Below are positions 31,278-36,236 of a stretch of DNA of 64,000 nt, one piece after another; position 1 is the first letter of the stretch, and each line of letters starts with the position of its first letter. The notes under the pieces are model-generated. The model made no database searches. It was given only the letters and a program-made list of their open reading frames with translations, and had not been told where the DNA came from. The position numbers were made by a program, and so were the translations under genes. Origin of the DNA: Chloroflexota bacterium (GTDB lineage: Bacteria > Chloroflexota > Dehalococcoidia > SM23-28-2 > RBG-16-64-32); NCBI GenBank assembly GCA_037441345.1, contig JBBISJ010000002.1, positions 103,403 through 167,402 of the forward strand. Direction: 5' to 3'.

Positions 31278-32798
31278 GTGACGTTCGAGCCGAAACCATC
31301 CGAACGAATCATCAAGCGCTTCGGTGGACAGACCGCGCTGGCCAATCTGCTGGGCAAGCGCCAGAGCACCATCGAACATTGGGCCAGCACCGGCCGGATT
31401 CCGGCACAGTGGCAGGGGCCGCTGATGTCGCTGGCACGCCAGAAAGGGATCGTCTTGGAAGCCAAAGACTTCGTCGCCCACGAGCCTCACACCATCGCCC
31501 CGGCAGGAGGCCGCCTCGGCGTGCTCCTGGTCGGACTCGGGGCCGTCGCATCCACGTTTATCGCGGGCGTCGAGCACGCGCGCCGGGGCACGGCCAGCCC
31601 CATCGGATCTCTGACCCAGATGGGCACGATCCGGCTGGGCAAGCGCACCGAGGGTCGCATGCCTCTCATCAAGGAGTTCGTGCCGCTGGCAGCGCTGGAC
31701 CAGATTGTGTTCGGCGCCTGGGACCCGATCCCGGACAACGCCTACGAGGCAGCAATCAAATGCGGCGTGCTCGACCGCCACGAACACATAGAACCGATCG
31801 CGGACTTCCTGAAGACGGTCGAGCCGATGCCGGCCGTCTTCGACGACTTCTACGTGAAGCGGCTTCAGGGAACAAACGTGAAGCGCTGCGGCACCAAGAT
31901 GGAGGCCGCAGAGGCGATCCGCGCCGACATCCGCGACTTCAAGGAGAAGAACCACTGCGACAGGCTCGTTCTCGTCTGGTGCGCCTCCACCGAGATCTTC
32001 CTGGAACCTGGGAAAGCGCACGCCAACCTGGAGGACTTCGAGGCGGCGTTGGAGTCGAACGACCCCAGTATCGCCCCGTCCATGATCTACGGCTACGCCG
32101 CCCTGATGGAGCGAGTCCCATTTGCCAACGGCGCGCCGAACCTCACCGTCGACGCGCCGGCACTCGTGGCGCTCGCGAACGACAAGGGTGTGCCGATCTG
32201 CGGCAAGGACTTCAAGACCGGCCAAACGCTGATGAAGACGGTGCTCGCGCCGATGCTCAAGGCGAGGATGCTCGGCGTTGCCGGCTGGTACTCCACGAAC
32301 ATCCTCGGCAACCGCGACGGGGAAGTGCTGGATGACCCGGAGAGCTTCAAGACCAAGGAGGAGTCCAAGCTGGGCGTTCTGGAGTACGTGCTCCAGCCGG
32401 ACCTGTACCCCGACCTGTACGGGAACATCTTTCACAAAGTGCGGATCAACTACTACCCGCCCCGTGGAGACAACAAGGAAGGATGGGACAACATCGACAT
32501 CTTCGGGTGGCTCGGTTACCCGATGCAGATCAAGGTCGACTTCCTCTGCCGCGACTCGATCCTTGCGGCGCCCCTCGCGCTTGACCTCGCTCTTTTCCTC
32601 GACCTGGCGCAACGGGCCGGCCTGAAGGGCATCCAGGAGTGGCTGTCGTTCTACTTCAAGAGCCCCCAGCACCCGGCGGCCGTCTACCCGGAACACGACC
32701 TGTTCATCCAGCAGACAAAGCTGAAGAACACGCTGCGCTGGCTGATGGGCGAGGAGCAGATCACGCACCTCGGCACCGAATACGCAGACGAGGGCTAG
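31278..32798 (+). CDS. ino1: Inositol-3-phosphate synthase with N-terminal Cro/YdaS-like HTH fusion
   Basis: GVLLVGLGAVASTFIAG, NGAPN, GKDFKTGQT, NILGNRDG, GDNKEGWD, RDSILAAP; about 66 extra N-terminal aa with an HTH pattern. Confidence 0.93.
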   Translation: MTFEPKPSERIIKRFGGQTALANLLGKRQSTIEHWASTGRIPAQWQGPLMSLARQKGIVLEAKDFVAHEPHTIAPAGGRLGVLLVGLGAVASTFIAGVEHARRGTASPIGSLTQMGTIRLGKRTEGRMPLIKEFVPLAALDQIVFGAWDPIPDNAYEAAIKCGVLDRHEHIEPIADFLKTVEPMPAVFDDFYVKRLQGTNVKRCGTKMEAAEAIRADIRDFKEKNHCDRLVLVWCASTEIFLEPGKAHANLEDFEAALESNDPSIAPSMIYGYAALMERVPFANGAPNLTVDAPALVALANDKGVPICGKDFKTGQTLMKTVLAPMLKARMLGVAGWYSTNILGNRDGEVLDDPESFKTKEESKLGVLEYVLQPDLYPDLYGNIFHKVRINYYPPRGDNKEGWDNIDIFGWLGYPMQIKVDFLCRDSILAAPLALDLALFLDLAQRAGLKGIQEWLSFYFKSPQHPAAVYPEHDLFIQQTKLKNTLRWLMGEEQITHLGTEYADEG

Positions 32799-32816
32799 CC
32801 GTATACTGTCGGGAGC

Positions 32817-33728
32817 GTGGCGAAATACCTGCTGTTCTGGTTCGTCTTCCGGATTCTCGGGCGCCTGCCGCTGCCCATGCTCTACTGGATCGCCGACATC
32901 GTAGGCACGCTTTCCTTCATGTTCGCGTCCCGCACCCGGTCCTCGGTCCTCGATAACCTCGGGCACGTGATGCCGGAAGCTTCGCCGCCGGAGCGCAGTC
33001 GGGTCGCGAAGCGGGTCTTTCACAACGTCGCCTACTACTACGCCGACCTGGCCCATATGCCACACATGAGTGCCCAGCGATTCGTGGACGAGCGCCTGAC
33101 ATACCACGGCATCGACGAGCTGTTGCGGCCAACCCTCGCTTCGGGCCGTGGGGCGATCATGCTCAGCGCGCACTTCGGTAATCCCGAGCTGGTTGCTCAG
33201 GCGATGGGGCCACTCCGCATACCCACCTTCGCCGTGACCGAACCGGTGCAACCCCCGCGCCTCTCGAGGATGCTCAATGAGATCCGGTCAAACGAGGGCG
33301 TCGAGTTCCGGCCAGTGAGTGTGGGCTCAGCCAAGCACATCATTCAAACGCTTCGTTCGGGCGGGACAGTCGCGCTGATGGGCGACCGTGACATCGAGGG
33401 GCCGCGCATGCGACTGCCGTTCTTCGGAGTCGAGACGTGGATGCCCACCGGCCCGGTGGAGGTCGGGCTGCGCACCGGCGCGGCGATCTTTCCCTCGTTC
33501 TGTGTCAGGCGCGACCGGTACAGGCTCGAGGCGTACCTCGAAGATGAGATCACCGTTGAACGGACGGATGATTTCCAGGCCGACGTAAAGGCGACCATGC
33601 TGAAGTACATCGAACGGCTGGAGTGGTGGCTACGCCGGGAGCCGGAGCAGTGGGAGGTGCTGGAGCGCATCTGGGACGATGCCGGTTCTGCAGCCGATCG
33701 CACGAAGGCACGGGCGACGGCGGCTTGA
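32817..33728 (+). CDS. Lysophospholipid/LpxL-family acyltransferase (PatA-like)
   Basis: HFGNPE (Hx4E), ALMGDRD, FFG.ETWMPTGP, EPEQW. Confidence 0.85.
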   Translation: MAKYLLFWFVFRILGRLPLPMLYWIADIVGTLSFMFASRTRSSVLDNLGHVMPEASPPERSRVAKRVFHNVAYYYADLAHMPHMSAQRFVDERLTYHGIDELLRPTLASGRGAIMLSAHFGNPELVAQAMGPLRIPTFAVTEPVQPPRLSRMLNEIRSNEGVEFRPVSVGSAKHIIQTLRSGGTVALMGDRDIEGPRMRLPFFGVETWMPTGPVEVGLRTGAAIFPSFCVRRDRYRLEAYLEDEITVERTDDFQADVKATMLKYIERLEWWLRREPEQWEVLERIWDDAGSAADRTKARATAA

Positions 33729-34495: not shown

Positions 34496-35619
34496 GGATC
34501 GCTCTCGTATCGCCGTACGATTGGTCGGTCCCGGGCGGCGTCAACCGCCACGTGGCCAACCTTGCAGCGCATTACCTGAGGCGCGGGCACGACATTCGCG
34601 TCGTGGCGCCAGCTTCCAAACGATTGAACGGTCAGCCCGCGTGGCTGCAAATCATCGGCCACGCCAGCATCGGATTGCCGGCGAGTGGCTCCGTGGCGAA
34701 CGTGAGTCTTTCGCACAACCTCGGGCCGCGCGTCAAAGCGTACCTCGCGAAGGAGCAGTTCGACGTGGTGCACGTCCACGAGCCCTTCATGCCGTTGCTG
34801 CCGTTCCAGTTCATTCGCTACTCGCCCGCGCCGGTGATCGCCACGTTCCACGCCGCGCGGGACACGGGTAGCCGCATCTATGCATACACGCGGTTCATCA
34901 TCAATCCGTGGCTACCGCGCATCAACGGCCGTATCGCGCACTCCAGGGCTGCACTGAAGCTGATCGGCAAGTACTTCACCGGGCGTTACCGCATCATCCC
35001 CAGTGGCATCGACTACCCCTCCTTCGCCGCCGAAGTGCCACCGATGCCGGCGCTGATGGACGGCAAGCGGAACATCCTCTTCGTCGGCCGGCAAGAGCCG
35101 CGGAAGGGTCTACCTTACCTGCTCGAAGCGTTTGCCCAATTGAAGCGCGAGCTACCACAGACACGGCTTGTGGTTGTCGGCCCGGACGGCGGACTGCGCG
35201 CGGCCTGCCTGCGGTTCATTCAGCAGAACGAGGTGAAGGACGTGGTTTTTACGGACTATGTCCCCTTCGAGGATCTGCCACGGTACTACAAGAGCGCGGA
35301 CGTGTTCTGCGCGCCGAACACCGGCCACGAGAGCCTGGGCCTGATCATCCTGGAGGCCATGGCCGCCGGCCTGCCCATCGTCGGCACCCGGATTCAGGGC
35401 TTCCAGGACGTGCTGACGGACGGGGTCGAGGGCCTGCTGGTCCCTCCCCGTGAAAGCGCACCCATGTGCGAAGCGCTCAAACGCCTGCTCCACGATGCTG
35501 CAATGCGGGAAGAGATGGGCCGGGCCGGGGCCCGCCACGCTCAGCAATTCTCCTGGGAGGAGATGTCCGGCCGGGTGCTAACGTTCTACGAAGAAGCCGC
35601 CGCAGGAGCCGCCGCCTGA
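34492..35619 (+). CDS. pimA: GT4 glycosyltransferase, PimA-like (phosphatidyl-myo-inositol mannosyltransferase)
   Basis: MRIALVSPYDWSVPGGVNRHV, HVHEPF, ATFHA, GRQEPRKG, ESLGLIILEAMAAG. Confidence 0.8.
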   Translation: MRIALVSPYDWSVPGGVNRHVANLAAHYLRRGHDIRVVAPASKRLNGQPAWLQIIGHASIGLPASGSVANVSLSHNLGPRVKAYLAKEQFDVVHVHEPFMPLLPFQFIRYSPAPVIATFHAARDTGSRIYAYTRFIINPWLPRINGRIAHSRAALKLIGKYFTGRYRIIPSGIDYPSFAAEVPPMPALMDGKRNILFVGRQEPRKGLPYLLEAFAQLKRELPQTRLVVVGPDGGLRAACLRFIQQNEVKDVVFTDYVPFEDLPRYYKSADVFCAPNTGHESLGLIILEAMAAGLPIVGTRIQGFQDVLTDGVEGLLVPPRESAPMCEALKRLLHDAAMREEMGRAGARHAQQFSWEEMSGRVLTFYEEAAAGAAA

Positions 35620-36236
35620 TGCGTATCCCGCTCCCCCGCTCCGCGCCAAGGTGGGTAACCGAACCGGTCGTCCGCCCGCTCTCCAGGCTCGGCGTTACGC
35701 CCAACATGCTGACAGTGCTGGGCCTGGCCGGTAACGTCGCCGCCGCCGTACTGGCCGCGGACGGGAGGTTCCTGCCGGCCGGTGCCCTGGTGCTGATCTC
35801 AAGCGCGCTGGACATGTTCGATGGCGCACTGGCCCGCGCCACAGGACAGGCGACGCCGTTTGGGTCCGTCTTCGATGCCACGGTGGACAGGGTGTCAGAG
35901 GCGGCCGTACTGTTCGGTCTACTCGTCTACTTCAGCGATCGCGGCGGCCGCACCGAGGAGCTGCTGATCTTCGTGGCAGTTGTCGGCTCGATACTTGTCA
36001 GCTATGTCCGGGCACGGGCAGAGATTATCGGCCTGACGATGAAGGAGGGTGCGTTCACCCGCTTTGAACGCGTCGTACTGATGGGCCTGGGACTGATCGC
36101 GGCGGCGCTTATCGACAATGACATCATCACGTACGTCCTGTGGGTCCTCGCCGCCCTGGCATCCTTCACCGCAGCACAGCGGCTTGCTATGGTGTGGGCA
36201 AAGGCGCGCAACACCGACGAGGACGAGTCAGAATAG
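35619..36236 (+). CDS. pgsA: CDP-alcohol phosphatidyltransferase (phosphatidylinositol-phosphate synthase-like)
   Basis: GVTPNMLT, DMFDGALAR...FGSVFDATVDR, SYVRARAE, RFER. Confidence 0.85.
   Translation: MRIPLPRSAPRWVTEPVVRPLSRLGVTPNMLTVLGLAGNVAAAVLAADGRFLPAGALVLISSALDMFDGALARATGQATPFGSVFDATVDRVSEAAVLFGLLVYFSDRGGRTEELLIFVAVVGSILVSYVRARAEIIGLTMKEGAFTRFERVVLMGLGLIAAALIDNDIITYVLWVLAALASFTAAQRLAMVWAKARNTDEDESE

Follow-up and report, generated by a model that had tools for sequence, protein, structure and literature searches.

Phosphatidylinositol (PI) and a derivative bearing a sugar and an acyl chain, both familiar chiefly from mycobacteria, are very probably the products of a tightly packed five-gene operon in an uncultured subsurface member of the Dehalococcoidia. 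The genes lie on the + strand at positions 31278-36236 of the window (the whole stretch of 64,000 nucleotides analysed) and code, in this order, for a myo-inositol-3-phosphate synthase (MIPS), a PatA/LpxL-type acyltransferase, a PHP-family phosphoesterase, a PimA-like GT4 glycosyltransferase and a phosphatidylinositol-phosphate synthase (PIPS). Gene order, homology, residue conservation and the maintenance of this gene set in the order and the phylum make it likely that the block is a single operon leading from glucose-6-phosphate to an acylated glycosyl-PI of the mycobacterial AcPIM1 type. In the route that we infer from these observations (including all enzymatic activities, the nature of the sugar, dephosphorylation before glycosylation, and co-transcription), MIPS would cyclize glucose-6-phosphate to inositol-3-phosphate, and the integral-membrane PIPS would combine the latter with CDP-diacylglycerol (CDP-DAG), supplied by CdsA (its gene is present elsewhere on the contig), into PI phosphate (PIP). 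The soluble PHP phosphoesterase, possibly anchored to the membrane through its cationic amphipathic tail, would remove the terminal phosphate from PIP to yield PI. The peripheral GT4, its gene seemingly coupled translationally to that of PHP, would transfer a hexose, most likely mannose, from a nucleotide sugar to PI, and the PatA-like enzyme would attach a fatty acyl chain to the sugar of glycosyl-PI.

The first-pass annotation had described five co-oriented genes with short gaps or overlaps, and this layout is exact to the base. As read from the sequence, the truB stop codon is followed after 32 nt by the MIPS start, the MIPS-PatA gap spans 18 nt (GGGAG precedes GTG) and the PatA-PHP gap 8 nt, while the last two junctions are overlaps, ATGA between PHP and PimA (34492-34495) and TGATG between PimA and PIPS (35617-35621). 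No terminator-like sites were found on the + strand within the block. The earlier proposal of a single operon has gained weight, as the packing of the genes is that of one transcription unit and the set stays together in the order and in much of the phylum; co-transcription of the five genes is the reading that we infer. The arrangement is not due to chance, because each of the 18 genomes sampled from the same order has PatA-PHP-PimA-PIPS, the exception in spacing being a single locus (L049) with ~5.9 kb between PHP and PimA.

The suggestion that the host is a probable Chloroflexota monoderm agrees with its relatives, which are named Dehalococcoidia or Chloroflexota, and with the genome, a MAG in which LpxC was not found. 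The sequence is present only in DNA runs of a subsurface metagenome. The block had also been presented as a case outside Actinomycetota; this holds as far as the host is a member of Chloroflexota, but the implied rarity was overstated. PIPS was detected in 195, PimA in 149 and PatA in 128 of the 201 Chloroflexota genomes sampled. In at least 107 of the 149, PimA is immediately followed by PIPS, and all 41 relatives examined carry PimA. Thus, the PI/glycosyl-PI gene core is phylum-wide in Chloroflexota and represents no rare transfer.

Between truB and MIPS, the 32-nt gap harbors a perfect palindrome, AACGAAATTTTCGTT (31251..31265, no strand assigned), which occurs as a single copy in the genome, even with up to one mismatch allowed. 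A related sequence, approximately TAACG-N7-CGTTA, is situated ~10-25 nt before the start of the long-type MIPS (see below) in six relatives, regardless of gene orientation. The palindrome probably represents an operator or a promoter element and would mark where the unit begins. At the other end, a gene for a thioredoxin-fold protein disulfide oxidoreductase (PDO; 36237..37004, +; TIGR02187, 211 bits at a cut-off of 185) begins at the base directly after the PIPS stop. In 17 of the 18 loci sampled from the order, PIPS is followed by this gene, a conserved downstream neighbor without a known role in the pathway. The last co-oriented gene, located 10 nt after PDO and followed by a convergent gene, codes for a dUTPase (37015..37449, +; TIGR00576, 124 bits). 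It is found directly after PDO in two of the 18 loci (L034 and L035), and is probably co-transcribed with the block and functionally unrelated to it.

The mycobacterial PI/PIM enzymes named in the first-pass annotation did turn out to be the closest solved or curated relatives of the respective proteins. MIPS (Ino1; 31278..32798, +; 506 aa, GTG start) matches PF07994 (317 bits) and PF01658 (118 bits), and its best solved relative is the inositol-3-phosphate synthase 7nwr (4.5e-168 over aa 67-497). At its N-terminal end, MIPS carries a Cro/YdaS-like “carph-isopro” domain (aa 9-60, nt 31302-31457; NF046037, 60 bits vs. a cut-off of 38). Of the 18 sampled loci, 17 have a MIPS gene next to the block; this gene belongs to either of two types mutually undetectable by BLAST, a short one (12 loci) and a long HTH-fused one (5 loci). 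The occurrence of two such divergent types in one slot suggests that the function is kept there, not the gene lineage.

PIPS, a PgsA1-like CDP-alcohol phosphatidyltransferase (35619..36236, +; 205 aa), has M. tuberculosis PgsA1 (6h53, 4.9e-28) as its best solved relative. Its profile scores are 140 bits for NF045883 PIPSynth (cut-off 170), 138 for archaetidylinositol-phosphate synthase and 29 for pgsA; both this protein and the PatA-like one remain under the NCBIfam equivalog cut-offs. The motif DxxDGxxAR-x8-G-x3-D-x3-D is intact. In the alignment with PgsA1, the catalytic D93 and, from the inositol-phosphate pocket defined by mutagenesis in MtPIPS (PMC4634129), S132, R155 and R195 are kept, with K135 replaced by Arg. 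Since it is the sole PF01066 protein found in the genome, i.e., its only CDP-alcohol transferase, a broader or different head-group specificity is possible.

The PHP-family metal-dependent phosphoesterase (33737..34495, +; 252 aa) features a PHP_C domain and a CehA/McbA-type match; its true start is the ATG at 33737 and not the start of the longer ORF at 33623. Residues H40, E67, H74, H108, D171 and H173 are invariant and H7, H9 and D14 at least 90% conserved; as PHP-type His/Asp/Glu residues, they probably act as metal ligands. The AF2 model (pLDDT 92.5) retrieved uncharacterised PHP proteins, RNase AM and pAp phosphatase, and no characterised lipid phosphatase was found among these fold-search relatives. 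The C-terminal 46 aa are amphipathic with a net charge of +7. This gene is the sole member of the block without a mycobacterial counterpart.

According to the literature, a PIP phosphatase has been assigned to this route in Bacteroides only (PMC4634129, PMC9246714). Of the 149 PimA-bearing genomes, at least 58, spanning ~18 families (a hand count from tables), have the PHP gene next to pimA. The gene is paired with PIPS in the absence of any pimA in one family (L068-L070), and in some Actinomycetota its product is fused to a GT4 (664 aa) inside a MIPS-PIPS cluster. Linkage of these three kinds makes PHP a credible candidate for the PIP phosphatase, with the role deduced from gene context. It is possible, if on balance doubtful, that the pathway stands but an unlinked enzyme dephosphorylates PIP, leaving PHP with some other task, for example the hydrolysis of nucleotide or sugar-nucleotide by-products, the dephosphorylation of pAp or inositol monophosphate, or a nuclease function. 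By-product hydrolysis may be carried out in mycobacteria by the products of the Nudix and HIT genes flanking their operon. The closest characterised PHP relatives indeed act on nucleotides or RNA (RNase AM, 7ug9/9etk; pAp phosphatase, 2yb1), and the weak NCBIfam matches are to RNase RNM and nucleoside bisphosphate phosphatase. Furthermore, Dehalococcoides/Dehalogenimonas-like genomes keep MIPS-PimA-PIPS without this PHP or PatA, and paralogs away from the cluster are frequent (in 41 PimA-bearing genomes the PHP homolog listed lies elsewhere). Such a detached role is, however, at odds with a linkage that tracks PIPS even without pimA, with the GT4 fusion in the cluster of another phylum and with the ATGA overlap with pimA; an inositol-monophosphatase, in particular, would consume the very substrate that the neighboring PIPS needs. 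The PHP gene offers a testable candidate for a phosphatase step to which no mycobacterial enzyme has yet been assigned.

The GT4 (34492..35619, +; 375 aa), already auto-labelled as a PI mannosyltransferase in IMG, is predicted from its sequence to add the first sugar to PI, and this sugar is probably mannose. The best solved relatives are structures of M. smegmatis PimA (4n9w/2gej, 3e-55 over the full length; next GT4, 8.5e-22). With residue roles taken from PMC9202250, the residues for catalysis and those of the beta-phosphate and mannose sites do not vary among the Chloroflexota homologs. The GT4 of the window keeps Y9, P14, G15, G16, H118, R196, E199, R201, K202, E274, S275 and E282 of PimA; changed are Q18, Y62, N63, R68, R228, D252, D253 and K256. 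The guanine and ribose contacts (D252, D253, K256, R228) are replaced in every Chloroflexota homolog, and the acceptor-side Y62, N63 and R68, which matter in mycobacterial PimA, read A, S and N in the GT4 of the window and are changed in the host's order; hence, the donor and the exact acceptor could differ from those of PimA. The segment of D252/D253/K256 reads V-P/S-x-E-D-L-P-R-Y-Y in all Chloroflexota homologs, a motif common in GT4 enzymes, and a mannose-1-P guanylyltransferase-like gene was found only truncated (155 bits vs. a cut-off of 440). A glycolipid other than a mannoside, built from a UDP- or ADP-sugar (Glc, GlcNAc, Gal), would fit these features. So would PIP as the acceptor instead of PI, with PHP dephosphorylating the glycosylated product in the manner of sugar-phosphate synthase/phosphatase pairs; the actinobacterial fusion, with PHP downstream of GT4, has the layout of synthase-phosphatase fusions. 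Both variants are nevertheless unlikely, given the invariance of the mannose-contact E274 and S275 and of the beta-phosphate residues, the position of PimA as by far the closest characterised GT4, and the PI-mannosides made by Thermomicrobia, where a homolog with the same loop occurs (L004).

The PatA-like LpxL-family protein (32817..33728, +; 303 aa; PF03279, 141 bits) is predicted to acylate the sugar of glycosyl-PI. Among NCBIfam profiles, it matches the PIM acyltransferase NF005919 best (119 bits, under the cut-off of 209), and M. smegmatis PatA (5f2t, 1.4e-17) ranks first among its solved relatives, followed by the LpxM-type 5kn7 (7e-9); His126 is kept and Glu200 is replaced by Asp. As the genome is without LpxC, this would be an LpxL-type enzyme lacking a lipid A substrate. 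It is highly improbable that the block serves soluble products, with the GT4 glycosylating free inositol phosphate (cf. MshA), PHP dephosphorylating the result to a glycosyl-inositol compatible solute or thiol precursor and the transferase being a general phospholipid (PGP) synthase merely nearby. In favor of such a reading, a GT4 accompanied by a phosphatase is typical of compatible-solute synthesis, the MshA profile is matched by the GT4 in its C-terminal half (103 bits) and the genome has no other CDP-alcohol phosphatidyltransferase. Against it, a separate MshA-like GT4 elsewhere fits that profile much better (369 bits), the GT4 of the operon can be aligned with PimA over its whole length (191 bits vs. 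77 for MshA structures), the transferase combines a kept inositol-phosphate pocket with a low pgsA score, and the conserved block includes a lipid acyltransferase.

The acylated glycosyl-PI route favored here most resembles that of mycobacteria and corynebacteria, where pgsA1 (Rv2612c), patA (Rv2611c) and pimA (Rv2610c) represent the same three clustered families, each the best solved relative of its counterpart, with the same predicted chemistry (PIP to PI to glycosyl-PI to acyl-glycosyl-PI) and with the catalytic and inositol-phosphate-site residues kept in the window proteins. The differences include the gene order (patA-PHP-pimA-pgsA vs. pgsA1-patA-pimA), the location of ino1 (within the operon vs. 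elsewhere), the inserted PHP and the absence of Nudix/HIT neighbors, the loss of the guanine contacts and several acceptor-side residues of PimA, and the host, a Chloroflexota monoderm without a mycolate envelope.

In Bacteroides thetaiotaomicron, BT_1522-BT_1526 likewise cluster MIPS, PIP synthase and a PIP-to-PI phosphatase in a two-step route via PIP, although the phosphatase BT_1525 is described as PgpA-like (PMC9246714), whereas the window protein belongs to the PHP family by Pfam/NCBIfam. The Bacteroides cluster continues to inositol sphingolipids and the block of the window to glycosylated, acylated PI. The archaeal archaetidylinositol-phosphate synthase route is close as well, since the transferase scores nearly equally on the two profiles (138 vs. 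140 bits); the lipid donor of the archaeal route is CDP-archaeol, in contrast to the bacterial CdsA present in the genome of the window. That route also needs a phosphatase, which is not known to have been assigned so far.

Within the same phylum, diol-based PI-mannoside and acyl-mannoside lipids of Thermomicrobia have been described chemically. No genes tied to them were found in the literature searched; a Thermomicrobiales MAG carries the PimA-PIPS pair (L004). The diol-based phosphoinositol mannosides would be the very product class predicted for the operon of the uncultured Dehalococcoidia member.

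The five-gene block at positions 31278-36236 lies within an unbroken run of co-oriented genes on the plus strand (28183-37449), comprising infB, rbfA, truB, the block itself, the gene of a thioredoxin-fold protein disulfide oxidoreductase (PDO) and dut, in a window with a GC content of about 64%. The block, all on the plus strand, begins with MIPS (31278-32798), featuring both Pfam MIPS domains, followed by an LpxL/PatA-type acyltransferase (32817-33728; PF03279), a PHP phosphoesterase (33737-34495), a PimA-like GT4 (34492-35619) with full-length PimA homology, and a CDP-alcohol phosphatidyltransferase (35619-36236) bearing the CDP-alcohol motif and referred to here as phosphatidylinositol phosphate (PIP) synthase, PIPS. 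The first base of the PDO gene (36237-37004, plus strand; TIGR02187) directly follows the PIPS stop. Although the longest PHP reading frame begins at 33623, its start was placed at the ATG of position 33737, which sits 8 nt past the patA stop and matches the beginning of the PHP homologues. The coordinates and common orientation of the five genes, as well as their ATGA and TGATG overlaps, had been proposed in the first-pass annotation and were confirmed by reading every junction in the sequence. No terminator-like hairpin was found on the plus strand inside the block, the promoter scan returned no sigma-70 consensus, and a search for RNA runs containing the window sequence found none, its sole match being a DNA run from a subsurface metagenome.

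Overall, the block probably represents the Chloroflexota version of the early pathway of phosphatidylinositol (PI) mannoside (PIM) biosynthesis, with ino1 residing within the operon and the PHP protein as a candidate PIP phosphatase. The initial reading of a PIM-like lipid pathway is supported by homology, site residues and the conserved gene set. Its assignment to a Chloroflexota monoderm also holds, because Dehalococcoidia or Chloroflexota MAGs supply the closest named relatives of both the GT4 and the PHP protein, and LpxC was not found in the host genome (2.69 Mb in 73 contigs, 97% complete, the window being on contig C2), with the control genomes giving the expected result.

The closest structural match of the GT4 is PimA itself: residues 1-372 of 375 align with 4n9w/2gej (3e-55, 191 bits), the next GT4 structure trailing at 8.5e-22 and 81 bits. 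Ten homologues (nine from Chloroflexota and one from Saccharimonas) were aligned with the PimA of M. smegmatis, for which the catalytic, beta-phosphate, mannose-site, guanine/ribose and acceptor residues have been described (PMC9202250). Ten positions, Y9, G16, H118, R196, E199, R201, K202, E274, S275 and E282, corresponding to the catalytic, beta-phosphate and mannose-site residues of PimA, are invariant in all ten homologues; P14 is conserved in all aligned Chloroflexota homologues and G15 in at least 90%. The guanine/ribose contacts that specify GDP-mannose in PimA, D252, D253 and K256 along with R228 (PMC9202250), are exchanged in every aligned Chloroflexota homologue; the window protein has P, F and L along with P at these sites, and the motif V-P/S-x-E-D-L-P-R-Y-Y stands in place of the guanine contacts in all aligned Chloroflexota homologues. 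On the acceptor and membrane side, Q18, Y62, N63 and R68 became N18, A62, S63 and N68, and the basic helix R77/K78/K80/K81 of PimA reads P/R/K/A. The former four positions are changed in the order of the host, N63 and R68 being kept in the homologues from Chloroflexia and Thermomicrobiales. Judging by this pattern of conserved versus changed residues, the fold, catalytic machinery and sugar pocket look like those of PimA; GDP-mannose as the donor and the exact acceptor are predictions. When motifs of a GDP-mannose pyrophosphorylase were searched for, one short, low-scoring nucleotidyltransferase emerged; its best profile, the mycobacterial-type mannose-1-P guanylyltransferase, scored far below the cut-off. 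This candidate weakly supports a supply of GDP-mannose.

The transferase closing the block retains the motif D-x2-D-G-x2-A-R-x8-G-x3-D-x3-D (DMFDGALAR-ATGQATPF-GSVFDATVD), including the catalytic D93 as aligned to its best solved relative, PgsA1 of M. tuberculosis (6h53, 4.9e-28). In the inositol-phosphate pocket delineated by mutagenesis as S132, K135, R155 and R195 in MtPIPS numbering (PMC4634129), the window protein has the same residues except for Arg as a conservative change of K135; Phe replaces P153, and Asn replaces D31. The PIPS profile NF045883 scored highest (139.7 bits, under its cut-off of 170), with pgsA at only 28.6 bits; the profile of the archaeal AIP synthase also reached about 140 bits. 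This enzyme is the only PF01066 protein detected in the host genome, where no separate PgsA or PssA of the PF01066 family was found, and CdsA is encoded on the same contig as the block. Either the CDP-DAG-derived lipids of the host are chiefly inositol lipids or the sole PIPS possesses a wider specificity. The role of a di-myo-inositol-phosphate synthase was rejected on account of a score of 46 bits versus 140 for PIPS and the lack of a cytidylyltransferase domain.

The acyltransferase matches PF03279 with 141 bits, and among solved structures it is closest to PatA (5f2t, 1.4e-17), a lipid A acyltransferase following at 7e-9. His126 is kept (HFGNPE), and Glu200 of the charge-relay pair is Asp. 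The top curated profile was the PIM acyltransferase NF005919, with 119 bits against an equivalog cut-off of 209. A function of the LpxL-type gene in lipid A acylation was rejected because the host genome lacks LpxC. A second PatA-like acyltransferase (NF005919, 139 bits) is encoded outside the window and away from the operon, at 4251-5168 of contig C34, adjoining a FabF-like ketoacyl synthase and a phytoene-desaturase-like oxidoreductase; in many other Chloroflexota, two PatA paralogues stand in tandem inside the operon.

The MIPS of the window belongs to a long type. Its Pfam domains PF07994 and PF01658 scored 317 and 118 bits, both above the cut-offs, and residues 67-497 match the solved inositol-3-phosphate synthase 7nwr (4.5e-168). 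The first 66 residues (31278-31475) constitute a Cro/YdaS-like 'carph-isopro' domain (NF046037, 60 bits, above cut-off), which every long-type MIPS of the family shares and which is absent where MIPS is of the short type. Searches with the long-type protein and PF07994 detected MIPS in just 19 of the 41 relatives. The apparent lack of the enzyme in the other 22 was dismissed: the control, Corynebacterium glutamicum, which carries ino1, gave no match either, hence such a search misses short enzymes of the actinobacterial type. Indeed, tblastn with the 371-aa MIPS of Dehalogenimonas located a short MIPS of about 360 aa (71-79% identity) immediately ahead of patA in 12 of the 18 loci fetched from the order (L036, L037, L041-L048, L050 and L051), ruling out that the adjacency of MIPS is confined to the family of the host. 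The long, HTH-fused enzyme fills this slot in five loci (L034, L035 and L038-L040), and tblastn found no short-type MIPS in the host genome. The two types are mutually undetectable by BLAST yet occupy the same operon position, which looks like a non-orthologous displacement within one order and is strong evidence that the supply of inositol phosphate functionally belongs to the block, since two MIPS lineages unconnected by BLAST share the slot. Such a swap in a single operon slot represents a clean natural experiment.

A perfect palindrome, AACGAAATTTTCGTT, is situated at 31251-31265, 12 nt ahead of the MIPS start, where it occupies the spacer of a promoter-like region; it is the only copy in the genome. 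In each of the six relatives inspected, a sequence resembling TAACG-N7-CGTTA lies ahead of the long-type MIPS, also where the gene is inverted. The palindrome is a plausible candidate operator for the DNA-binding domain fused to MIPS.

A further set of genes potentially related to inositol resides outside the window at 62164-66459 of contig C10, where three genes are found together: a GNAT acetyltransferase, an MshA-like GT4 (369 bits with the MshA profile TIGR03449, under the cut-off of that profile) and a PIG-L/LmbE-type deacetylase, the latter two being separated by a DarT-Macro (DarTG-like) gene. This set, reminiscent of GlcN-inositol/mycothiol-type chemistry, points to a second, predicted inositol-consuming pathway.

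Textbooks present PI and PIMs as hallmarks of Actinomycetota, and mycobacteria depend on them for viability. Diol-phosphoinositol-mannoside lipids have reportedly been described from Thermomicrobia. No relevant publication on PIM or PimA in Chloroflexi, Chloroflexota or Dehalococcoidia came up in literature searches. IMG already labels these GT4 proteins automatically as PI mannosyltransferases. A PimA homologue was present in all 41 relatives, and the succession PatA-PHP-PimA-PIPS, in that order, in all 18 fetched loci, representing six families of the host order; in 17 of them PDO comes directly after PIPS. In one locus (L049, from genome G027, contig C28; 1152-7025) the otherwise invariant coupling is broken by about 5.9 kb between PHP and pimA. 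Across 201 evenly sampled Chloroflexota genomes with a completeness of 80% or more, PIPS was detected in 195 (97%), PimA in 149 (74%) and PatA-like genes, often as tandem pairs, in 128; at least 107 of the 149 PimA-bearing genomes harbor PIPS directly downstream of PimA. The small genomes of the Dehalococcoides and Dehalogenimonas kind possess just MIPS-PimA-PIPS after truB. The core pathway thus appears to be old and spread through the phylum Chloroflexota as a whole, and not an isolated transfer. Such a distribution would shift the expectations as to where PI and PIM lipids occur (soils, sediments and the subsurface) and alter the reading of inositol-glycolipid biomarkers.

Synthesis of PI via PIP needs a PIP phosphatase, an enzyme described as unidentified (PMC4634129), its sole characterized representative being a PgpA-like protein of Bacteroides (PMC9246714). 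Literature searches found no published PIP phosphatase besides this protein, BT_1525 of the B. thetaiotaomicron inositol-lipid cluster. The enzyme converting PIP to PI is unassigned in actinobacteria and, to our knowledge, in archaea too. Since the route requires this step, the PHP protein of the block is a credible candidate on the grounds of gene context, with a chance that we put close to even or slightly below. Among 31 homologues, H40, E67, H74, H108, D171 and H173 are invariant, and H7, H9 and D14 are at least 90% conserved; we take these His, Asp and Glu positions to be metal ligands. The structure model (pLDDT 92.5) matched the PHP structures 3e38, 2anu and 7ug9 with a Foldseek probability of 1.00. 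The structure search returned only PHP proteins of uncharacterised function, RNase AM and a pAp phosphatase, thus sequence and predicted fold suggest a phosphoesterase and nothing more specific. The last 46 residues, forming two helices, carry a net charge of +7 (the catalytic part has -6), and amphipathicity within the protein peaks there, which fits a predicted binding of this tail to the membrane surface.

At least 58 of the 149 PimA-bearing genomes have PHP immediately next to pimA, upstream of it in 56 of those 58, and this adjacency spans about 18 families by hand count. In three genomes of one family without a PimA homologue (G182, G217 and G233), a PHP homologue is located directly upstream of PIPS, and two sister genomes of that family carry two PHP genes, one next to PIPS and the other next to PimA. 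In Actinomycetota, PHP homologues are rare (7 of 301 genomes), and two of those seven, G348 and G512, encode a PimA-like GT4 and a PHP domain in one reading frame. These fusions, at 1462-3456 of locus L063 (minus strand; 664 aa, Pfam-confirmed) and 5358-8069 of locus L064 (plus strand; a single reading frame), are clustered with MIPS and PIPS, and a PAP2_3 (AUR1-like) protein was Pfam-confirmed in L063. A universal role of PHP in the route is counted against by its absence from the Dehalococcoides-type PimA-PIPS genomes and by the PHP paralogues elsewhere in many genomes.

A broader scenario, which we regard as tentative and somewhat improbable in its entirety, would combine three elements: the tailed short PHP proteins would be the missing PIP phosphatase; with PIPS as the only CDP-alcohol phosphatidyltransferase of the lineage, inositol lipids together with their acylated glycosides would dominate among the CDP-DAG-derived membrane lipids of a wall-poor monoderm; and the HTH-fused MIPS, acting on the palindrome, would control the supply of head groups.

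In comparison with the mycobacterial PIM pathway, PHP is the only component of the block without a mycobacterial counterpart. Unlike the PgpA-like BT_1525 of Bacteroides, the window protein matches PHP models and not PgpA in the Pfam and NCBIfam profiles; if its candidate role is real, PHP would represent a second solution to the dephosphorylation of PIP, drawn from another protein family than the Bacteroides enzyme.
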